DNA from: an uncultured virus (IMG/VR IMGVR_UViG_3300028840_003545)
Taxonomy: Duplodnaviria > Heunggongvirae > Uroviricota > Caudoviricetes
DNA length: 64,000 nt
Strand: one strand, 5' to 3'
Virus record (IMG/VR): IMGVR_UViG_3300028840_003545
Of this stretch, positions 4,051-57,727 are shown one piece after another. Under the pieces are notes generated by a model, which saw nothing but the letters and a program-made list of their open reading frames with translations, was not told the DNA's origin and made no database searches. A program made the translations under genes and the position numbers. Numbering within the stretch: position 1 is the first letter of the stretch; every line of letters starts with the position of its first letter.

Positions 4051-5172
4051 TTGGTTCGGTGCCCGATACTCGACACGGGTGTAAAGCCTGATTACTTATT
4101 CACCGATAAAGCTACGGCTTAATCCTTATCTTCTTCTACTTCTTCTTCTTTCCGATCGCTTTCTTCCTTCTCACGAGCGGCAGGAATGCGCTTTACAAGC
4201 GCAATATTGAGCATTTCAAGATCAGTCATGAGCTTAAAAGCCATTTCCTTAAGCTCTGGATCGGATAGGATAGTTCCATCTTCTACAATGACACGTTGTG
4301 TGCCTTGTCCAATTTTGCAAATGGCTTCTGCTAGAGCCAAATAAGCCATAACAGACCCATCTTCAGGCTTTGGGGGCTTTGGTGGCTCTTGCGGCGGTCC
4401 CATCATAGGCATTCCCATAGTCATCTCAATTAGTCCCTTTCGTATCCTCTATCTTGTTATGATCACCGATAAAGTTATTCAGTGCTATAAGCCACTTTTG
4501 ATACTCCATCGGATGGATCGGTTGTCCTTTTTTAACTTTAAGCTCTGGAATCTTGAATTCCAAATCTTTACAAGCTCTCTTAAGTAACTTAAAAGTACCT
4601 GGATGATTAGCCTCGTAAGAGGCTTTCATTTCTTCTGGAAATTGCTTAAAAACACTATAAGCGTAAAAACCATAAGTAGCTAAGAAACATCCAGCCATCT
4701 CGTTAGCTGTAAAACGAACAATCTCCATAGCTGGAACACCTTCTTTACTCATAGAGTATTGATGTTCCAATGCAGTTCGTTTAGTGTCATATTCCTGTAC
4801 TAACTCTTTGGCTAGTTTTACATCGCCTTTGTGAAACATTTAGTTCCTCTACAATAAAAACACGGTACGCGTTACATTCGCATCCCATTGAATTCAATTT
4901 CTTATCAGCATCTTCTTTGCTGCATGCTAACTTTAAACAACATGTGCCAGTAGTTATAATTTGATGTTTTATTTCTTCCAAGCCTAAACACGATAGGATC
5001 CAGAATTCCATTTTGCCCCCCCCAATCGTTATATGAAAGCCGTTAGGACCCTTCCCACGGTTAAAGAAAAGGGGAACTGAACTTATCCCCGTGGGAAAGG
5101 CTGGACAGGGCTTTATGTCCATTTAACCAAGCTTTTACTTAAATAGCCTCCCAAGATTTTTAGCTTGCGAAG

Positions 5173-7792: not shown

Positions 7793-7810
7793 TTTTATCC
7801 ATTTAATTAG

Positions 7811-7889
7811 TGGGAGAAGAGGGAATCGAACCCAATGCACTGGCACCTTATAAGGATGCTGCCAACGCGACCAGTCGGCACCTTCTCCC
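7811..7889 (-). tRNA. atypical tRNA with TAT anticodon (Ile, AUA-decoding)
   Basis: GGGAGAA/TTCTCCC acceptor stem, GCCGA/TTGGC D stem, GCATC-CTTATAA-GGTGC anticodon arm, GGG-TTCGATT-CCC T arm. Confidence 0.75.
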
Positions 7890-8972: not shown

Positions 8973-9879
8973 GATATTGATTATCCTTTCTTAGTTCCTC
9001 TACAGTTCTAAGTTCGTGACCCCATAAAACACCCTGTATAAAGCCAAGCCATCTCTGAGCTTTTGCTATATTTCCTTTTGCAGCTATATTCTTAACTTCG
9101 CCAGCCATCCACATAACGTGTCTAAGTCTATAGTATCTAACAGGTAAGTGCGAATGTGCCTTTATAGTAACTGTCTTACCGTCTTTTACAATAGTTATAT
9201 CTTTAATTTGCTGTGGCTGAACACCTATCTTTTTAAGAATTCCAATGTAAGTGTCCGCCATGTGAATGGCTATTTTTACTTGCTTGCTCATTACTCTTTA
9301 AAATTACTTACCATCTCTCTAGATTCATCTACAGATACCTTAAATCTTTTTACCAATGTATCAATAATTGCTGAATCATGCTTCTTAAGTCTCTTATTTA
9401 CAGATATGACCTTATGAATTTCAGTCATTTTCTTAGCTAAGGCAGAATTTTTTGGAATAGAAGGTTGAGTAACGTCATACCTAATAGTAACCCTTATTTC
9501 TGCAACGTCCTTAAACATTCCAGACATTCTAGATATGATTTCTTCTGGCTTTCCTATGAATTCTACAACATGAGTTTCTTTCATAACGTACCACCCTACT
9601 CAAAACTGAGATCTTCTCAGTTTTGTTTGATATAGGTTTCAGCCACCAAGTTTCGTTAGCGTCACAACGAAATTCTGGCCGATTTCCGGGTATTTATTGG
9701 ATTTACGGTTGAACTTAAACGCAATGGTAGAATCGTCTTTCGACACTACCCTATGCGTTACGTCTTGTCCTTCAAAATGACGGATAGCGCGACGTCGCAC
9801 CTTATCCTTAATTTCAGTAGGAAGATCTTTTGCTAGCGGTGTGTACTTAAAACGCATAACTATTCCCCTTTCTTATCCG

Positions 9880-9955
9880 TGGTACCCCCAAAAGGATTCG
9901 AACCTTTAACCAATAGCTTAGAAGGCTACTGCTCTATCCGTTGAGCTATGGGGGC
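9880..9955 (-). tRNA. tRNA-Arg (TCT)
   Basis: GCCCCCA..TAGCTCAACGGATAGAGC..GTAGC-CTTCTAA-GCTAT..AAAGG-TTCGAAT-CCTTT..TGGGGGT-ACCA; encoded CCA. Confidence 0.95.
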
Positions 9956-9959
9956 TCGG

Positions 9960-10770
9960 GGAATTTTACAACTCCCCTTCTGTTTATAGTCCTTTAAGAC
10001 TCGATCAACTTAGACCAATCAGCGTTTTTTCACCGTTTACTTCGAAACTTTTAGGTACCGTTTATATAGTCAATCAGAAGGTTTTTACTGAGAGACTCGA
10101 TCAACTTAGACCAATCAGCGAAGTGCTTTTAGATTGTGCAACTGATCCAGTTTTATACAATCTCAGGGTATAACCTGCCAAATCAACACCAGGGTCTAGA
10201 ATTCTGTGTGTCTGACCGGATTCATGTCTTTCGACACTACTATTTACAACCCTTTGCCTTCCACCGTTTTACTTCTACATCTAGTGTTTACGTTTACTAC
10301 AGGGAGCTTGTCTTTGTAAAGACGCTAACACTTTATTTAGCGCTCCCCCAGCTTCACCGGAAGCTGTTGACATACCTTAATTATCTTAAAAGAACACCCA
10401 AGCTCACTTTCATGAGCAACGTTTTATTAATCGCGCGCCTAATGACGCTAGAGATTTCAAATCTCAAACGATTTAATAAATACGCTTAGACTCCGGTAGC
10501 TAACCATCCATGTCCGAGGTTCTTTTTCCTGCATCATTTAAATCTACTACAATTGTCAACATTCTTCTTACCTAGAATAGTCGCATGGCAGTTTCTCCAA
10601 TTCTATTAATGTTAACGCCATTTTTCGGATAACCACTATTGGTAGATTGTTTTCACCGAACTTACAATCTTAGACTGCTTTATACGCCCGACCCTTTACA
10701 GTCTATTGCGCTACAATCTTTTACTTCATTCATTTAAAAATTGAGTAGGTGTAATCCTATTTACAACGGT
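9960..10770 (-). ncRNA. candidate large structured non-coding RNA
   Basis: About 800 nt with no minus-strand ORF in an otherwise gapless genome; many hairpins, including GAAA-looped ones; lies directly upstream of tRNA-Arg. Confidence 0.5.
9997..10120. repeat. 28-bp direct repeat, two copies
   Basis: AGACTCGATCAACTTAGACCAATCAGCG at 9997-10024 and 10093-10120. Confidence 0.95.
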
Positions 10771-49084: not shown

Positions 49085-49597
49085 TTATCTCCTGTTCTTT
49101 CTTACTTTCACTACCCTACTTCCAGGAAAAACAGAAACCATAGTTGTTATAGTTGCAAGATCTCTCCAGGTAAGTTCTATTCTTCTTTCTTTCTCATCAG
49201 TATATGAAGGAACTACAAAAACCTCTTCATCAAACTCATCAGCAGATAAAACCATAGTCATACCTGTTTTTTCCAACTCTTCTATATCGGATTCAGGTAT
49301 AACATATGGTTCGTCTGACTTTTGTTCATCTCTGGCTATAACAATTCTAGGTCTACCTTCTAATTCACTATCACTAGCTCCAACCCTAGTAGGTACACCT
49401 AATGATATCTCCTCTTCTCTCTTTTCTTTATTCTTACCTGGATTCTTTTTTAGCCATTCTGAGCAAATATGCTCATCTGGTAAAGAGCAGTGTCCACCTT
49501 TATTATAATGTTTACATTTTTTACTTCCTGGTATCTTTTCGTATCTTTCACATGTTATCTTGTTATATTTACTAGCGATAGCCATCTTTTCCTCCAT
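49085..49597 (-). CDS. hypothetical Cys-containing protein
   Basis: C..Y......KKCKHY..GGHC.LPD...C.EW. Confidence 0.5.
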   Translation of the reverse strand: MEEKMAIASKYNKITCERYEKIPGSKKCKHYNKGGHCSLPDEHICSEWLKKNPGKNKEKREEEISLGVPTRVGASDSELEGRPRIVIARDEQKSDEPYVIPESDIEELEKTGMTMVLSADEFDEEVFVVPSYTDEKERRIELTWRDLATITTMVSVFPGSRVVKVRKNRR

Positions 49598-49617
49598 ATG
49601 TTAGTTTTTGTTAAAAA

Positions 49618-49756
49618 TTGGCACACTAATTGCTCTTACGAGCGCGCGCCCAAGCCAGCAATTCCAGGATTTTTTATTTCGTTTATAAAACATAGACTAT
49701 AATGGTTAAAATCTTGGCACACTAATTGCTCTTACGCGCCCGCGCCTCAAGCCAGG
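49618..49756 (+). promoter_or_regulatory. duplicated sigma54 (-24/-12)-like box
   Basis: TTGGCACACTAATTGCTCTTACG at 49618-49640 and 49714-49736; GG-N10-GC spacing. Confidence 0.6.
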
Positions 49757-49959
49757 TTCTAATTTGAAGTTACTAAACTTGGAAAGTTTCCACATATGAT
49801 TCCGTAATATGCATAGTTTAAAAAATGAAGAAATAGAACACGTTTAATCTAAAACTAATACCCTGGTAAACCTTTGATTCTTCCCCTGATGTATTTTTAC
49901 ACCTACAGGTATTCCATGCTTTCTCAGGATCACTATCGACAATGAAGTATCTTGTAAAA

Positions 49960-50450
49960 CTTTCTTGAGATCTTGAGAATGACCATACGCAAGATCTCAG
50001 TAAAAGTGAGATCTTGAGATCTGAACTGTGCAGCGATTCGTATATAATTTCATACACTTAGCCTCAAGATCTCAAGATCTCAGTAAAATTAGGAGAGAGC
50101 ACTTAGAGAAAACATGGGTTTGATTTTTTTGTATCGTGGCACGATGCAATACGAAGCTAAAAGTATGCCAATTACGATTTCATATATTTCCATGTTCTAT
50201 GGCACAGTGAATGCAACGCGCGCGCGCCCAACCTCTCTACAAATTTAAAAGTGAGATCTTGAGATCATGATCAAATTTCAATAACTTACAAGGACAGTCA
50301 CAATACAAATCAGACTGACAACTACTACCATAATTGAATCATTTCGCGCACTTGACGCATCGTATCTGAGTATCTGTTCATAACTCAATTTCACGATTAA
50401 AACTGAGATCAAAGTGAGATCTTGACTCGAAAAAGTGAGATCTTGACCAA
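49960..50450. repeat. iteron-like repeats, putative replication origin
   Basis: AAAGTGAGATCTTGA at about 50003, 50248, 50411 and 50432; inverted CAAGATCTCAGTAAAA at about 49990 and 50073; directly downstream of the primase-helicase. Confidence 0.65.
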
Positions 50451-50579
50451 ATCCCCGGAGATTTTCATACTTACCATGCTCAAGTAGTTGATTTGCTTTA
50501 GAAATTTGAAGAAGCATGATTAGTTTCCAGGGCAACAGTACATCTTTTACTCATTTTTATGATAAACTAACAACTCAGA

Positions 50580-53500
50580 CTAGTTTATATTATCATTATC
50601 TGCATCATACCTACCGCCACCCCATAGTCTTGGTTGCTTTTTTGGAAATGGAGTAAATTCTAATCCTTCAGGTATTAAATCTGAGTCAATAACTACGCAT
50701 CTAGGTCTTGTGTTTCCAAGTTTAATTTGCTTACCACTATCAGTTACATATCCACCACGCTTTTTATTCTCTCTAATTATTCTTTTTAAAGACTTTAGTC
50801 CGTTTGTATCGTCACCTCTACCAGTAGAACGCCTTTGTTCTAGATACACTTCGTAGCAAAGTGGTAGATTTATATGAAGTTTATTATCTATGTACGTGTA
50901 ATGCTTTTCATCTTGTAAATCTCCAGACTGAGCATACACACTTAAAGATTCAATGAAACTATCCAAAGCACTTTTAACACCATCACCACCTTCCAACATC
51001 TCTTCTGTTAGTGCTTCAAATATTGGTTCTAATTCTATATCTGGTACTTCTACACCTAAATTTTCACAAATTGCTTCATATTGAAGTATACCAAATACCA
51101 TAACTGCTAAGTTATCAAAACATCTTAGTGGAGTTTTATCTATTTTCTTTATTTTTGTTAGTATTATTCTGGTAGTTTTCTTAGCATCTTCCATAGTTTT
51201 TTCTATTTCACAACCAAGTGAATATGTTATTATGTATGAAGCTAAAGCTGATAAATTTTGTACAGATACTTGCCTAAAGTTTCTTTGCATATCTGGGTTA
51301 TCTACTATAGTATTTTTTTCTGGACATACGCTTATCATTCTTTCTAGTAGAGCTGCATCTTCCATAGGTTTAGATTCGCCAGCTAAAACTATTGGAGCAT
51401 GTAGGTGAAAGCTAACTATAGTAAGGTCTTGCCTGCCCCTTTCTTCTGTTTCACCACCATATCCTCTACGCAATGCTCTATGCAATTTCTCCATTTTAAT
51501 TTTACCCATATCTTTAGGCTTGTATTCATCTAAAAATACAGGAATAGAGTCAGTTGCTGCTTGAAGTCTCATTAAGGCGAAATCAGTTTCGGTTACTGAA
51601 TAGGGGTCTGTTTTTCTAGCAACACCTAAAAGTGGCCAAAATATCTCTCTGACAATAGATGTTTTACCGGATCCCTGTGTCCCCCATATAACAAGTATAG
51701 GAAAGTGACCCATTAGTTGGTTTATACGTGGTTTAAATGGTGTAGAAAAAAACCATCCTAAAACTGGTATAACAACCTCTGGAACGTTTAATGTTGTTAA
51801 TTGAGCTAAAACCTCTTTAGCGACATCTTTAACTTCATCTTTACTTAATTCACTGTATTTCATTCTACGATTTAGTGATTCATAGTTACCATAATATACG
51901 ATATCAGGAGTTTTCATATGACCACTTTGATCAATTACATATTCAGAAGTGACCCATCTTCTGCCGTCTGCATCTTCAAAATAGCCTAAATTATCGGTAC
52001 CTTTATATGTAGGAACGTCAGCATTAGCTAGGTTTTGCATAAGATACTGAACATTATCATCGCTACCTGTCCACATTAAATCTGGATTAGGCAGTGCTTT
52101 AATAAGATCTTTTCTACTTACCCATGTACTTTTAGGGAATACAAACTTATTAGTAGTATGATCGTTGCTACTTGTTATATCTCCAACTATTAATTGGGTT
52201 GTTCCAGTATCTATCTTATATCTGGTTGTTATAACAAATGATGAGATTACGTCTACATGTTCTACCCCACCTTTTTCTGTTTTTACATAATAGAATCCTA
52301 AGTCTTCATATATTTTACCTCGTATACTTTCATCTATCTGACTTCGTCTTTTTTTAGCTTCTTGTTTCTTTTTCTTATCTTCTTGTCTTCCTTCTTCTTT
52401 TTGTCTCTTTCTAGATGCTTTTATAGTTGCCCTTACTTGTGGTTTAGATATTCTGAATGTTTTACATATATTTTCTGTGTATCTTTCAAGTTCTAACTCA
52501 GAACATGAACAAACAAGCTCACATACTTGTTTATATATTTCGTTCTGTTCTCTAGTAGGTGAGGATGTATCTACTTTAGATAATAGAAAATCTGGATATG
52601 CTTTTGCATTTTTTAGTACATTTTCTAGTTCTTCAATAGGATTATTTACTGTAAATTCATTTAAATCAATCTTATCTAAACCATCAGGTCTAGGAAGTTC
52701 AGCTATTCTAACGTCATTGCCAGCTTTATGAAGTTCAATAGATGTTTTTACTGCGCCATCTTCACCAGGTTTGGTTCCATCTGGTAAAACATCAGCGTCA
52801 TTACATATAATAAACTGGTCTGCTTTTTTAGCTAAAACTAGTAGTTTAGGTATATCTCTTTCTCTAAATCGTGTAGTTACTGGAGATATGCACGGAATAC
52901 CTGCTTGTTTAGCTGATATACAATCAGTAACACCTTCCGTTATTATAGCTCTTTTTACTCTTCTAACTAGAGCATCTTCGTTGTAGAACCATTCGTTAGA
53001 TACAGTTTTAGATACATATGTATGATTATCTCCATGAGTTAGGAGTTTCTTATATTTAGCTTTCTCCCAATCATCATCACTTGTATATGGTTCTGCTCTT
53101 CTTGCTATAGCATAAACCACCCTTCCTCTAAACCAGTATGGAAAGAATAGTCTATTTTTGAAAAAATCTTTTACACCTCCTCCTTTTATTTTTACAAAAA
53201 GTCCTGTTTTTAGTATATATTCGTGATCTTCTTCTTCTAGTTCTCTTTTTAGATATTTATATAGTTTTCCGTCAGCCCAACCTAATTGAAGATCGTTTAT
53301 TGTATCGTCAGTGAATCCATACTTTTGTTTGTAAAATTCGTCTCTTATTTTATTTGGTAGGTTTTTATGATAATAAGCAGTTGCGAGCGTTAGTATATGT
53401 TCTACTTTAATACGTTCTTCATAACTACTTGTTTCTTCATCATGAATCTCAGAGTCACTAAAATCTTTTTTTAACCAATAAGGTTCTAGTCCACATCTTT

Positions 53501-53768
53501 CGGCTAAAATTTCTACTGCTTCACTAAAACTGCATCCTATTTTCTTTTGTATATATTCGAATACATCCCCACCTTCTCCGGTTCCAAAATCAAACCAGCT
53601 TTCAGTGTTAGGATATACAGCAAAACTTGGATCTTTATCGTCTCTAAGTGGAGAACAGCATAATAGTACATTACCTTTTCTATTTAATTGAGCATCTTCT
53701 TCAACTATACTTACAATAGAGGTTCTATTTCTAACCTCTTCTACAAAGTCTTTGTAACTAGTATTCAT
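50580..53768 (-). CDS. DnaG-type primase fused to a P-loop helicase
   Basis: CHC2-like N-terminus (SPLR.DKDPSF..FDFG.GEGGD), Toprim ITEGVTD and DAD, Walker A GTQGSGKT, Walker B FLDE. Confidence 0.9.
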   Translation of the reverse strand: MNTSYKDFVEEVRNRTSIVSIVEEDAQLNRKGNVLLCCSPLRDDKDPSFAVYPNTESWFDFGTGEGGDVFEYIQKKIGCSFSEAVEILAERCGLEPYWLKKDFSDSEIHDEETSSYEERIKVEHILTLATAYYHKNLPNKIRDEFYKQKYGFTDDTINDLQLGWADGKLYKYLKRELEEEDHEYILKTGLFVKIKGGGVKDFFKNRLFFPYWFRGRVVYAIARRAEPYTSDDDWEKAKYKKLLTHGDNHTYVSKTVSNEWFYNEDALVRRVKRAIITEGVTDCISAKQAGIPCISPVTTRFRERDIPKLLVLAKKADQFIICNDADVLPDGTKPGEDGAVKTSIELHKAGNDVRIAELPRPDGLDKIDLNEFTVNNPIEELENVLKNAKAYPDFLLSKVDTSSPTREQNEIYKQVCELVCSCSELELERYTENICKTFRISKPQVRATIKASRKRQKEEGRQEDKKKKQEAKKRRSQIDESIRGKIYEDLGFYYVKTEKGGVEHVDVISSFVITTRYKIDTGTTQLIVGDITSSNDHTTNKFVFPKSTWVSRKDLIKALPNPDLMWTGSDDNVQYLMQNLANADVPTYKGTDNLGYFEDADGRRWVTSEYVIDQSGHMKTPDIVYYGNYESLNRRMKYSELSKDEVKDVAKEVLAQLTTLNVPEVVIPVLGWFFSTPFKPRINQLMGHFPILVIWGTQGSGKTSIVREIFWPLLGVARKTDPYSVTETDFALMRLQAATDSIPVFLDEYKPKDMGKIKMEKLHRALRRGYGGETEERGRQDLTIVSFHLHAPIVLAGESKPMEDAALLERMISVCPEKNTIVDNPDMQRNFRQVSVQNLSALASYIITYSLGCEIEKTMEDAKKTTRIILTKIKKIDKTPLRCFDNLAVMVFGILQYEAICENLGVEVPDIELEPIFEALTEEMLEGGDGVKSALDSFIESLSVYAQSGDLQDEKHYTYIDNKLHINLPLCYEVYLEQRRSTGRGDDTNGLKSLKRIIRENKKRGGYVTDSGKQIKLGNTRPRCVVIDSDLIPEGLEFTPFPKKQPRLWGGGRYDADNDNIN

Positions 53769-55180
53769 CAGATAATAAACTTTCTTGGCTCTCTGATGTC
53801 TAGCCCAATACTATTAAATATTCTTTTTCTTTGCATCCATCTTGCTAATAGAGTAGGTACTCTAACGTCTACTATATCGTATATAATTGCGCTATTTTTA
53901 CCCGGACGCATTACCCTACCAGCTCTTTGTGTTGTTCTTCCTTTGGCTTTACTTGGTAAAGCTAATATTAGTCTACTTAAATTAGGAACATCTAGACCTT
54001 CGTCAGCCAAACTAGTTGCTGTTAGACATTGAATTTCACCAGTTCTAAATTTATCTAATATTGGTTTTCTTAGTTTCTTTTTAGTTTTACCAGTTAATGA
54101 AGTACATTTAATTCCTTTTTTTGATATTTCTTCTGCTAAAAAGTAGCAATGTTCTACTCTGTTTGATAATACTAATATACTTTCACCTTTTCTAGCTTCT
54201 CTATTAGCTAATTCAATTATAATACTATTTCTCCATTCGTCAGTAATTAAAGCTCCAGTCATTTTATGAACATATTCTGTACTACTAGCCGATTCCCCAA
54301 ACATTTGAGAGAATGTAAAATCTGTTTCTATAGGCACAACAGATGCGTGCATTAAAAATCCATCTTCTATAAGCTTGTCCGTTGGATAATTAAATAGTTG
54401 AGTACCTAAAGACCAATACATTAAATTAGTTAGTCCATCTTCTCTATCTGGTGTGGCTGTTAGTCCAAATCTATATTTTGCTGGCAAATGTGGTAATATT
54501 TTTTGAAACGTATTAGCTGGAACATGATGAGATTCGTCTACTATCACTATCCCAAATCTTGTAAAAAGTTTGATATTATCTTTATTTTTTAATACATTTT
54601 CAATTGAATCTACTATAGCTACAGTAACATCTTGTATATCTACTATACCGTCTCCAATTTGACCTGCTTTTATTCCTATTTTTTTTAATGATTCAAGCCA
54701 TTGATCTCTTAGGTCTTTAGTATGAACTACTATTAAGGCAGTTCTTTTCATTTTACCTATAATGGATACACCAATAAATGTTTTACCTCCACCACAAGGT
54801 AATACTATAACTCCTTGCACTCTTTTTATAGCTGATTGCTGTGCATTTCTTTGATATTCTCTTAGACCTAAAGCGGCCTTACATTTTATTGGTTTACCAG
54901 TTGTTCTTCCATCTATAATTTGTACTATTATATCATGTTTATCTAGAATATTTCTTATAATATTAACTGCACCTCTAGGAGCGTGCGCATATCCTATTTT
55001 ATCTGGTTTTACACAATATATTCGTTTTGGTATATGATCCACATTACCACTTGAACTAAATCTTTTGGCTGCTATATAATAGGGATTTACGAAGCTTAAC
55101 GCTTCTCTAAGTTCATGAAATACAGGCTCTGGCAAACCTTTAATTATTATTTCGCCAGATACTAATGCTTTTACTTGCAT
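53768..55180 (-). CDS. superfamily 2 helicase (XPB/Rad25-like)
   Basis: LREYQ, PCGGGKT, DESHH, LTATPDR, EGLD, QRAGRVMR. Confidence 0.95.
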   Translation of the reverse strand: MQVKALVSGEIIIKGLPEPVFHELREALSFVNPYYIAAKRFSSSGNVDHIPKRIYCVKPDKIGYAHAPRGAVNIIRNILDKHDIIVQIIDGRTTGKPIKCKAALGLREYQRNAQQSAIKRVQGVIVLPCGGGKTFIGVSIIGKMKRTALIVVHTKDLRDQWLESLKKIGIKAGQIGDGIVDIQDVTVAIVDSIENVLKNKDNIKLFTRFGIVIVDESHHVPANTFQKILPHLPAKYRFGLTATPDREDGLTNLMYWSLGTQLFNYPTDKLIEDGFLMHASVVPIETDFTFSQMFGESASSTEYVHKMTGALITDEWRNSIIIELANREARKGESILVLSNRVEHCYFLAEEISKKGIKCTSLTGKTKKKLRKPILDKFRTGEIQCLTATSLADEGLDVPNLSRLILALPSKAKGRTTQRAGRVMRPGKNSAIIYDIVDVRVPTLLARWMQRKRIFNSIGLDIREPRKFII

Positions 55181-55247: not shown

Positions 55248-56051
55248 TCAGGCAAATGGATCATCTTCATCTTCATCATCATCGACCTTATCTTTATTTT
55301 CAAGTTTGTCTATGAAAGCTACAGCACTTTTAAGCTGATCTTCTTTAAGGTCTTTAATCTTCTTTATTCCAAATTCTTTTAGGAATTCAGTAAGCTCTTC
55401 TCTTGGTCTTAGTTTTAGTCTTTTGACTATATCTTGAGCATCGTCACTATCTATAGGTGAATCGTTTTTTCTTTTATTACTGTTGGATGATTTAGATTTT
55501 CTTTCTTTTTTATCGTCATCATTGTCATCATCGTCATCATCGTCATCATCATTATTTCTACCAGTAAGATCGAAAAGCTCTAGCTCAGAGAGCATTTCTT
55601 TATCTTCTTTCGTAAGTCTATCTTCTGGTAGTACGTTTATTTTATATCTTGTCTTAGTGCTTTTAGCCTTACCTTGTCTTTCAATTTCAAACCAATATTT
55701 TTCGAATCCATATTTTTCATCAGTGGCAACTAGATCATTAAAGAAGTATATACCTTGTTCAAAGATTCTTACCTCTTCAATGTCTTCTTCATCATAACCT
55801 TTCTTAAGTTTAGTGTATTGGGTTTTGACGTAAACGTTTATACTAAACTTAGCTTGTGGTGGGCCTTTTTTACAACGTTTGCAATCTTCTCCTTCACATA
55901 GCTCTGTACCACCATCCACCCAATGTATTTCTTTACCTTCAGGTTCACCTAAAAAGGCGACCATTATCTTATCGCCGTCATTTTCTAGCTTAATAAACGA
56001 ACCGCCGCCTCTAGATTTATCTGCTACTTCTTTAGCACTATCCCAGCCCAT
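55248..56051 (-). CDS. putative single-stranded DNA-binding/annealing protein
   Basis: FIKL..DGD...V.F, I.R.G.....TRY, acidic tracts, C-terminal DDPF; first gene of the replication operon. Confidence 0.65.
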   Translation of the reverse strand: MGWDSAKEVADKSRGGGSFIKLENDGDKIMVAFLGEPEGKEIHWVDGGTELCEGEDCKRCKKGPPQAKFSINVYVKTQYTKLKKGYDEEDIEEVRIFEQGIYFFNDLVATDEKYGFEKYWFEIERQGKAKSTKTRYKINVLPEDRLTKEDKEMLSELELFDLTGRNNDDDDDDDDDNDDDKKERKSKSSNSNKRKNDSPIDSDDAQDIVKRLKLRPREELTEFLKEFGIKKIKDLKEDQLKSAVAFIDKLENKDKVDDDEDEDDPFA

Positions 56052-56103
56052 GGTTTTTCTCCTATAGTTATTTTATGATGCATAGCACCATTGAACTGAA
56101 CGA

Positions 56104-56133
56104 AGTGTAACCTGGAACGGTTCCAGGTGTCAA
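56104..56133 (-). promoter_or_regulatory. replication-operon promoter with palindromic operator as its spacer
   Basis: TTGACA-N18-TACACT; ACCTGGAAC-G-GTTCCAGGT at 56110-56128. Confidence 0.65.
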
Positions 56134-56633
56134 TCGATGTCAACCTGGGTTACTCATCACAGTTACTATATGCTATGCTAGATACGTACTAGTTATGTTA
56201 ACTGTGCGGTAAGTAATGCACTTCTGACATGTGGATCATGTAGCTATATTTGATTGTTCCATGTTTTTAGTGAACATGGAAGAGGTATGATAAAAGGAAT
56301 CGTCTTTGTTTGGACGTAATTGACCCTGGGATCGATTTTGGGCTGATTAGTGTATAGGATACTTGAGTCACAATTGGACGCTATATAGCTAGCGAATTGG
56401 GGCAGTAATTGGCGCAATTGGGTAGCGCTCGGATTAGGGCAGGGGTAGAACGCGTTTTTGAGCCTAGGGGTAGGGGGTAGTGTAGGGGCAGGGGTGTCGA
56501 GCCTTTACGGGTCGATTTCAGGGGTAGGACAAGGTAGGATTTATCGAGTGTTAGAATTAAATAATAAAACGGTGGCTTTAGATCTATTTTGCTAAACCAC
56601 CGTTAACTAATTCTATAGACTTAAATGCGGAAA

Positions 56634-56651
56634 GCCCCGCTTTCGCGGGGC
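56634..56651 (-). terminator. intrinsic terminator of the 56683 gene
   Basis: GCCCCGC-GAAA-GCGGGGC followed by TTT on the minus strand. Confidence 0.75.
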
Positions 56652-56682
56652 CTATGTGGTGGGACGTAGTACGATGTAGGTT

Positions 56683-57228
56683 TTATTCTTCGTCGCTCGT
56701 GTCGTCGCTGTCGTCCACATTTTCCACGTTCAGGAAGTAGCGCGTTCCGCGTCGTTCTCCCTCTTTTCTTGCGGTTCCATCGGCGAGCATGGCTTTCGCG
56801 ATTCGGGAGACTTCCTTGCTTTCCAGACCACAGGATGCGGCGAGTTGACCCACCGTTTTTCCTTCGCCGTCGAGATGGTCAAGCAATGCTTCCTTTTCTT
56901 CATCGCTGGCTTTCGCCGTGTTGGTAGAAGAACCGGACGAAACAGACTTCTTACGAACCTTCAAGGACTGACAAAGGAACGTGATTTTGTCATCATCGGA
57001 CGCGGTGGCGCCCATGGGACCGGCGTCAAACCACTGCAAAAGTTCTGCTGCCTTTTCTTTGCGCGTGCCAAATCCGCTGATTTGCTCTTCGAGTGTCTTG
57101 ACCGCTTGCTTCGCCTTTTCTAGGCTTTCGTTCAGCTTCGTAAGCTCCGTTTCGTCATCAATACCCCAACCAACTTCACCATAGAAAACTTCGAGAAATG
57201 CGGACTGTGCTTTGTTAAGCTTCGCCAT
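56683..57228 (-). CDS. coiled-coil + winged-helix DNA-binding protein (GC-rich gene)
   Basis: GKTVGQLAASCGL..KEV...A..ML..G...KEGERRGTRYF; GGAGG SD. Confidence 0.7.
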   Translation of the reverse strand: MAKLNKAQSAFLEVFYGEVGWGIDDETELTKLNESLEKAKQAVKTLEEQISGFGTRKEKAAELLQWFDAGPMGATASDDDKITFLCQSLKVRKKSVSSGSSTNTAKASDEEKEALLDHLDGEGKTVGQLAASCGLESKEVSRIAKAMLADGTARKEGERRGTRYFLNVENVDDSDDTSDEE

Positions 57229-57332
57229 GTTGGTTCCTCCGTTGCTGTTCTTACGTGCGCCCATTTTGGTTCCCCTTTTCTTTGGGAACCGTTGTTTCGT
57301 TCTGGGTATCGGTTCCCGTTGCGTGCATTGGG

Positions 57333-57361
57333 AAGGTAACTCGGCTCAAAACCGTTGTCCA
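57333..57361 (-). promoter_or_regulatory. sigma70-type promoter for the wHTH gene
   Basis: TGGACA-N17-TACCTT. Confidence 0.5.
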
Positions 57362-57519
57362 CCCAAATTCGTATCGATATCCAAAAAAAAAATTACATAG
57401 GCAAAAACGGTTACTTACACATATGGCAATCGGCAACCTAACCGGACACGAACCGTTAATTAATTCGAATGGATTAGTTAAGTTATTGATAGCAAAGATT
57501 CTCGAGGATTAATGATTTT

Positions 57520-57624
57520 TGGCATATGGATTGCTAACGCGCGAGCGCTGTGTAAGACAAGGTGCGTGATAATTATGATAGCTGTTTTGCCAATTCTGGC
57601 ATATGGATTGCTAACGCGTGCGCG
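57520..57624 (+). promoter_or_regulatory. duplicated sigma54 (-24/-12)-like box
   Basis: TGGCATATGGATTGCTAACGCG at 57520 and 57597. Confidence 0.6.
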
Positions 57625-57727
57625 TTCCTTTCTCACGTTAGCGAAGTGTAGCAAAACGTTAACTAATTGCGTTCGATTAGTTATCGTTCGAAAAGAAAAT
57701 TGAATGGGAAAGGGATAGTATAGATAT

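Follow-up and report, generated by a model that had tools for sequence, protein, structure and literature searches.

Five short boxes on the plus strand of a 64,000-nucleotide stretch of DNA (hereafter the window) from an uncultured Caudoviricetes virus (IMG/VR record IMGVR_UViG_3300028840_003545) are probably sites for the sigma-54 holoenzyme of a bacterial host. All five are confined to two gene-free regions, in which they face against the direction of the genes, and each is joined to a GC-rich run. Within the sigma-54 reading, poised complexes clamped by this run are favoured over active promoters of non-coding RNAs; that the boxes are real docking sites with a GC-clamped melting region, poised against gene traffic, is held tentatively, at somewhat less than an even chance. 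An earlier note made from the letters of the window (the original prediction) had reported the first cluster of boxes. The second cluster, boxes 4 and 5, lies outside the span reported there and appears to be the conserved site.

Box 1 (49619..49653, plus strand) consists of TGGCACACTAATTGCT (49619-49634), the trinucleotide CTT and the GC-rich run ACGAGCGCGCGCCCAA; the box begins 22 nt past the start codon of the minus-strand gene 49085-49597, from which it is directed away. Box 2 (49715..49749, plus strand) is a tandem copy located 96 bp downstream and contains TGGCACACTAATTGCT (49715-49730), CTT and ACGCGCCCGCGCCTCA. Box 3 (50200..50231, plus strand) stands within an iteron array, with TGGCACAGTGAATGCA (50200-50215) abutting ACGCGCGCGCGCCCAA. 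Box 4 (57520..57549, plus strand) is composed of TGGCATATGGATTGCT, a single A and ACGCGCGAGCGCT and points away from the GC-rich gene 56683-57228, and box 5 (57597..57626, plus strand), its tandem copy 77 bp downstream, of TGGCATATGGATTGCT, A and ACGCGTGCGCGTT, a run with the palindromic arms AACGCG/CGCGTT. The GG and GC doublets are found at an exact spacing of 10 bp, and the core TGGCAC-N5-TTGCW is matched with no more than one mismatch in all five plus-strand sites, which represent three sequence families, two pairs being repeat copies.

The strict pattern TGGCAY-N5-WTGCW is found five times in the window, whereas 100 shuffles gave 0.29 on average and never reached five. The coordinates and the GG-N10-GC spacing given in the original prediction for the boxes at 49619, 49715 and 50200 were confirmed, and the enrichment and common orientation that it proposed to look for are borne out by this strict pattern, with all matches on the plus strand. 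The looser TGGC-N9-GC in which it had described the boxes is not enriched on its own: 20 were found where 12.35 are expected, a level also reached in 2 of 100 shuffles. Its minus-strand box, TGGCATACTTTTAGCT at 50155..50170, does exist; it carries two mismatches and no GC run, and belongs to a class found at about the chance rate (33 consensus matches with up to two mismatches in the window against 25.0 expected), so that it is probably a chance match.

The trinucleotide ACG and a GC-rich run begin 0-3 nt after every box. Only five runs of the form (CG)n or (GC)n, n being at least 3, were identified in the window, and three of them follow boxes. The tetranucleotide CGCG itself is not avoided elsewhere (48 observed against about 35 expected in the window). 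Its statement that no credible plus-strand gene follows was upheld: no plus-strand open reading frame (ORF) of 60 or more amino acids is found after any box in the window. None of the ten RNA folds computed at the five boxes on both strands gave a z-score below -1.1 relative to shuffles, and Rfam at the gathering threshold recognised only two tRNAs in the window and nothing at the boxes; a structured-RNA reading was dropped for lack of a stable fold or an Rfam family at the boxes. A terminator scan detected none after the primase gene or the RadC gene, where the boxes stand. A minus-strand sigma-70 reading of the reversed motif was also rejected, with a single match (ATGCCA-16-TATCAT, 57602-57575) and spacings at the other boxes that do not fit by eye.

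The only syntenic relative that was compared is a contig of 136,028 bp (G001:C1, locus L070; hereafter C1) with 37% GC and 55% primase identity, binned with a Saprospiraceae metagenome-assembled genome (MAG). It contains only two strict boxes in 136 kb. Both are on the strand opposite to the genes and stand in tandem, at a distance of 88 bp. They are placed about 220 bp upstream of, and point away from, the homologue of the winged-helix gene that adjoins boxes 4 and 5 (34% identity, E 7e-30); a GC-rich island is present there too. In the alignment of the window with C1 at the second cluster, TGGCA, TTGCT and the GC run are conserved islands amid diverged flanks, and the N5 spacers differ (ATGGA versus GGGCC and GGTGC). 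Conservation of half-sites and spacing with drift of the spacer is thus seen at the 57.5-kb pair and is absent at the 49.6-50.2-kb boxes, C1 being the sole relative. For the refuting condition named in the original prediction, a GG/GC spacing not conserved in relatives, the outcome is divided: one cluster keeps the spacing, and the other is missing altogether from C1.

Other searches for relatives returned little. DNA-level relatives were not found among reference phages, and tblastn of the primase against phages gave identities of at most 29%. Scans of viral contigs with the primase of the window and with its relatives of 81% (P0002) and 56% (P0003) identity recovered no relative; neither the exact 22-mer of box 1 nor the winged-helix alignment had a match in viral contigs. 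A metagenome scan yielded, besides the sequence of the window itself, 67 distant loci, 66 with 50-71% GC and one (L066) with 41%; the strict box occurs in none of the 67, and the contig of P0002 is not among them. Homologues of the primase number in the hundreds, most of them from organisms named as Myxococcota or 'Deltaproteobacteria'.

The second cluster is located about 290-370 bp upstream of the GC-rich minus-strand gene at 56683..57228, whose 181-amino-acid product shows a weak MarR-type winged-helix match at the C-terminus and possesses no ATPase domain. Four copies of AACCGTT/AACGGTT, candidate regulator sites, are found at 57287..57457, between this gene and boxes 4 and 5; the motif occurs 16 times in the window, against 4.8 expected. 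The gene is contained in a GC-rich island (56050-57700) in which the GC content per kb is 41-47%, compared with some 35% in the window as a whole, and the GC skew is positive. The island further holds two hairpins after the gene, at about 56560-56660, and a field of G-rich repeats, GGGGTAG/GGGCAGGGG, at about 56300-56540. The island of the relative stands at the same place, reaches 58% GC and has tandem repeats of 20-21 nt on both sides.

The composite of box and run is also found outside this pair of phages. Viral contigs were scanned with TGGCAY-N5-TTGCT, a gap of 0-3 and ACGYGYG, and at least 121 loci were recovered. In a collection of this size, the raw count is estimated to exceed chance by little and proves nothing alone; weight is carried by the flanking features that the pattern leaves unconstrained. 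Among 89 distinct zero-gap composites from the matches listed, a pyrimidine precedes TGGCA in 80%, G follows TGGCAY in 75%, a purine occupies the position after that in 72%, and the C/G alternation extends 8 positions past the scanned pattern before it fades. These three positions match the sigma-54 consensus, reportedly given by Barrios in 1999 as YTGGCACGr-N3-TTGCW. In a control sample of 121 boxes of the form TTGGCATG-N4-TTGCTA, chosen with no downstream constraint, 18 continue with ACGYG and 14 carry an alternating run of at least 8, compared with 0.7% of the other A positions in the same loci. Those parts of the sigma-54 claim in the original prediction that could be followed in sequence, namely the close match of the boxes, the spacing kept in the C1 pair and the flanks of the 89 composites, point in its favour.

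The phages that carry the composite are unrelated to that of the window: tblastn of the proteins of the window and of C1 against 240 viral loci gave only four weak hits, and the DNA of the carriers spans 29 to 70% GC. The neighbours of the composites include small terminases, ParB-like proteins, helicases, repressors and an integrase, that is, module borders. Rfam on 20 viral loci gave only weak matches, below or near the gathering threshold. A weak YrlA (Y RNA-like) match at L192 847-903 on the minus strand (32 bits against a gathering threshold of 69, E 0.005) adjoins a tRNA-like match; a composite box of this strand precedes it by about 600 nt.

Cultured phages are among the carriers. About 42 Vibrio T5-like phages (Thalassavirus; River4 and some 40 others) contain the composite, usually twice per record, which would fit terminal repeats, and it also occurs in Pseudomonas phages, among them PAK_P3, PollyC and relatives. 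Its form in cultured phages is TGGCATG-N4-TTGCT directly followed by ACGCGTGCGCG or ACGCGTATGCG; it is intergenic and without annotation in any record. The hosts of these carriers have sigma-54, which is counted in favour of sigma-54 recognition. Four strict boxes are found in the first 4.3 kb of River4 (L396; 562, 3956, 4059 and 4281), the region of A1/A2, and only that at 4281 has a GC run.

In the proposed mechanism, the boxes would be the -24/-12 docking sites for host RNA polymerase and one part of a two-part element, the other being the GC-rich run of alternating purines and pyrimidines, a kind of sequence that is able to form Z-DNA. Sigma-54 nucleates melting at -12/-11, where the run would begin. 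If the GC of the box is placed at -13/-12, the run would cover about -10 to +5, which is where an activator ATPase has to open the DNA, and this GC clamp would hold the bound polymerase closed. Every copy in the window faces oncoming minus-strand transcription from a gene-free control region, either the iteron gap or the regulatory region of the winged-helix gene. Poised and mostly silent complexes may thereby mark and insulate the boundaries of transcription units and the iteron region, and a short non-coding RNA would be fired only upon the action of a host enhancer-binding protein or under strong negative supercoiling.

Between such a poised, largely silent complex and an active promoter, the evidence leans towards the former, because a GC-rich run appears to cover the would-be melting region, no gene lies downstream, and no starts are listed at the boxes of PAK_P3 in the published mapping. 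The GC run itself is a phage feature, since it accompanies none of the 12 sigma-54-consensus sites on the non-phage contigs of the bin of C1, most of which precede an open frame. The bin as a whole has 14 matches to the sigma-54 consensus against one for a reversed-pattern control and encodes two full enhancer-binding proteins, neither on the phage contig. A host activator is a possible partner. The roles offered by the original prediction (origin activation, roadblock, antisense RNA or decoy) are not separable by present data.

The RNA ends of PAK_P3 are given in the supplementary table of an ONT-cappable-seq study (PMC10914365). In this phage the composite at 50946 (plus strand) and a plain box at 50812 (minus strand) stand back to back in a 510-bp gap. 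For none of the three boxes of PAK_P3 does the table list a start within about 10 nt of the predicted one (PMC10914365). It does list a sigma-70 start at 51049, which is 77 nt downstream of that expected from the composite. Transcripts of the upstream units have their most distant 3' ends at 50630, 50787, 50872 and 50897, all before the composite. The mapping argues against constitutive firing and is compatible with either a silent sigma-54 complex or a site that is not a promoter.

Several results weigh against poised sigma-54 complexes at an origin. The homologous iteron gap of C1 contains no sigma-54-type box, even with a looser pattern, and has instead a direct repeat, AATCGTGACAGGT, present twice (L070 11949-12023) where the window has boxes 1 and 2. 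The association of the boxes with an origin thus appears not to be conserved, because this homologous gap lacks them. An enhancer-binding protein (PF00158, Pfam) was detected neither on C1 nor among the ORFs of the window, no upstream activator site was identified, and the RpoN domain had no match in the bin that holds C1, which is incomplete. In PAK_P3, the listed read-through 3' ends (PMC10914365) are scattered and show no sharp stop at a box. Finally, the face-to-face and tight tandem arrays of boxes in some viral contigs are awkward for complexes of the size of a polymerase and suit a smaller DNA-binding protein better, and the composite across viral contigs is not mainly backward-facing. 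Rough ORF calls at 78 loci among the matches listed gave the flanking pairs (same, same) 17 times, (opposite, opposite) 14, (opposite, same) 18 and (same, opposite) 11; of those downstream genes in the same set that matched a PHROG, 13 are co-oriented and 6 opposed; and the River4 composite is located about 370 nt upstream of the pre-early genes A2/A1, co-oriented with them, in the terminal-repeat region. Many copies could for these reasons be ordinary promoters.

Active, activator-dependent sigma-54 promoters that make short non-coding or antisense RNAs are the first alternative, to which we give a low but appreciable probability. Their predicted plus-strand starts would be at about 49645, 49741, 50226, 57546 and 57623; from boxes 1-3, transcription would enter the iterons and the primase gene at its 3' end, for origin activation or antisense control, and from boxes 4-5 the RadC gene, likewise at its 3' end. 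What speaks for sigma-54 recognition in the sequence applies equally here, and the more frequent co-orientation with the next gene (13 versus 6 among the matches listed), like the position before A2/A1 in River4, is what would be expected of promoters. Tandem promoter pairs beside an origin recall the primary origin of T7, and boxes that point away from a regulator gene, with AACCGTT sites in between, have the layout of a regulator and its target pair. On the other side, there is no downstream gene, conserved RNA structure or Rfam family, the GC-rich melting region opposes opening, no phage activator gene was found, and the origin-like gap of the relative is without boxes. The cappable-seq data for PAK_P3 list no start at the three boxes, a result that short or condition-specific RNAs could escape. 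A variant in which the boxes produce a primer RNA in an R-loop was set aside: the transcript would take in no more than about 4-5 nt of the GC run, too little for a stable primer hybrid to be likely.

Outside sigma-54, the main rival, suggested by the close arrays, is an operator for a smaller protein, and we give it a low but appreciable probability. In this case another DNA-binding protein of phage or host would recognise the half-sites TGGCA and TTGCT, 11 bp apart and helically phased, perhaps with the GC palindrome, and the likeness to sigma-54 would be coincidental. Close tandem arrays with periods of 17-36 nt, some with a run on the last box only, and face-to-face pairs with abutting TTGC ends are found in viral contigs and suit operators better than promoters. 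Seven loci (L296, L319, L348, L352, L359, L378 and L380) have a palindromic super-site in which TTGGCATG-N4-TTGCT is followed, after a few bases, by AGCAA-N4-CGTGCCAA. The mixed gene orientation, the absence of listed starts at the PAK_P3 boxes and the winged-helix gene that adjoins the conserved pair also fit an operator, as do direct repeats within 250 bp in about half of 66 loci among the matches listed, which recall control regions. These repeats occur on either side of the composite, and the idea that the box reads into tandem repeats was discarded (18 loci upstream against 16 downstream of the 66, Wilcoxon p 0.47). Against an operator, the three unconstrained flanking positions follow the sigma-54 consensus, and the GC run keeps a property, alternation, rather than a sequence. 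Moreover, since the element occurs in unrelated phages that share no proteins and range from 29 to 70% GC, its common reader would have to be a widely conserved host factor, and sigma-54 is such a factor.

Promoters for a divergent phage sigma factor or RNA polymerase, beyond detection by Pfam, are improbable. Divergent phage polymerases do escape Pfam, the window covers 64 kb of a contig of about 135 kb (135,007), and many of its ORFs have no family. However, Pfam recognised neither a polymerase nor a sigma factor among the ORFs of the window, and a profile search of the complete 136-kb C1 detected no sigma-70 region 2 and no sigma-54 domain; a search of C1 for PF00940 was also without match, though its control matched nowhere either. 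In addition, the same composite is found in unrelated phages, T5-like phages included, which use the host polymerase for their pre-early genes, and the window has only five copies, none of them before a gene. Chance matches in recently duplicated repeat units without function are very improbable and largely refuted: boxes 1/2 and 4/5 are repeat copies and leave only three independent sequences, but three families are still well over the expectation of 0.29, a relative of 55% primase identity has kept the pair with a changed spacer and diverged flanks, and the composite recurs widely.

To return to the sigma-54 reading, the boxes can be compared with bacterial RpoN promoters of the glnAp2, nifH and pspA type. 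They are alike in the 10-bp spacing of GG and GC, in the core, in the pyrimidine before it and in the purine after it; they differ in that the boxes have no downstream gene, run against all genes, have no activator found and carry a GC run over the would-be melting region. Intragenic and antisense sigma-54 sites without an obvious gene, which are thought to be closed complexes, were reportedly described in E. coli and Salmonella by Samuels in 2013 and Bonocora in 2015. Those sites are scattered inside chromosomal genes, whereas the phage boxes lie between genes and come in pairs, are conserved from one phage to another and adjoin a GC run. Transcription-linked phage origins are also known, for example the T7 primary origin with its tandem promoters, T4 oriF and oriG, and the activation of the lambda origin, all with promoters of the sigma-70 type or for phage polymerases and co-oriented with genes. 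The window resembles them in its paired boxes beside a replication gene and a repeat-rich gap and is unlike them in the anti-gene orientation; the boxless origin-like gap of C1 also limits the comparison.

The use of sigma-54 promoters by phages, textbook elements as they are in bacteria, rests on few cases, and the nearest published case is that of Pseudomonas phage YuA. Its promoters are annotated '-24/-12 consensus' (Ceyssens 2008 record), and host sigma-54 use and promoter-trap activity are reported for this phage (PMC10914365). The YuA fragments belong to the structural module, are co-oriented with genes and possess neither the strict box nor a GC run. YuA was consequently rejected as a model for the present boxes, its annotated -24/-12 fragments being without the strict box. 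A full-text literature search found no paper on a conserved element of phages in which a consensus sigma-54 box is linked to a GC-rich alternating run over the melting region, or on such boxes in an orientation against the genes.

If the boxes do bind sigma-54 polymerase, phages would exploit the one bacterial holoenzyme that binds tightly yet silently, and it could serve them in a structural or regulatory capacity at origins and at the borders of modules. A further generalisation, which we regard as rather doubtful, is that phages of many lineages share a special sigma-54 site in which the melting region is replaced by a Z-DNA-capable run, so that a locked closed complex would be released only by high negative supercoiling or by a stress-activated host activator. 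Such a site would provide a supercoil- or stress-gated switch, an insulator or a polymerase sink at origins and module boundaries, with no activator supplied by the phage. If the boxes do not bind sigma-54, a widespread operator mimics the sigma-54 consensus and would confound the prediction of phage promoters. The presence of the element in cultured and tractable systems, the Vibrio T5-like phages and Pseudomonas PAK_P3, makes the question accessible at the bench.

The window has a GC content of 35%, and nearly all of its ORFs of 90 or more amino acids are on the minus strand. The replication module around the boxes, as assigned by Pfam and PHROG, comprises a helicase (53768-55180), a primase, a 170-amino-acid protein, a PD-(D/E)XK nuclease, a helix-turn-helix protein and a sliding clamp. 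The primase gene (50580..53768, minus strand) encodes 1062 amino acids with a CHC2 zinc finger, a DnaG core, Toprim and a C-terminal P-loop part, and is the upstream neighbour of a gene-free gap. The downstream neighbour (49085..49597, minus strand) encodes the 170-amino-acid protein, which is rich in cysteine and has no family match in Pfam or PHROG and no tblastn match against phages. The gene order of C1 is like that of the window, with helicase, primase, a gap of about 860 bp and, in the same position, a 171-amino-acid homologue of the 170-amino-acid protein (46% identity). This primase family is frequent in GC-rich genomes and MAGs of Myxococcota (Corallococcus, Myxococcus), and the window and C1 have 35-37% GC, a wide compositional spread within one family.

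The gap of 982 bp (49598..50579) is a candidate origin or control region, and its position is preserved in C1. Nine copies of TGAGATCTTGA, with at most one mismatch and in both orientations, form an iteron array at 49966..50446, and all copies of the window are confined to this segment beside the primase gene. The gap of C1 retains an iteron variant with one base changed, TGAGAACTTGA (five of the eight copies in the contig), four of the seven CG runs of the contig, and one identical 19-mer, ATTTCAATAACTTACAAGG (50275..50293, plus strand, in the window), the longest word common to both gaps. The cumulative GC skew is monotonic across the window, with no turn; no 40-nt stretch above 80% AT was detected in the gap, in a genome of 65% AT; and no initiator family was recognised among the proteins of the window by Pfam or PHROG. 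The placement of the boxes at a putative origin in the original prediction is therefore supported by iterons that are private to this gap and weakened by the missing skew turn and AT-rich block and by the boxless gap of C1. The label of an iteron-type origin is plausible and unproven, the link to replication being purely positional. An inverted repeat of 20 nt, 85% complementary, at 49599-49618 and 50553-50572 brackets the entire gap, and the palindrome ATCGTGGCACGAT at 50131-50147 includes an orphan TGGCACG half-site.

The remaining genes of the window are involved in lysis, tail-like structures and nucleotide metabolism, together with three tRNAs. One of these, a tRNA-Ile with the anticodon TAT at 7810-7889, was called by ARAGORN and missed by Rfam at the gathering threshold. 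A further region of 913 bp, at 9858-10770, has no minus-strand ORF, holds one of the few CG runs (10432) and has AACCGTT motifs at its edge (10765 and 10792).

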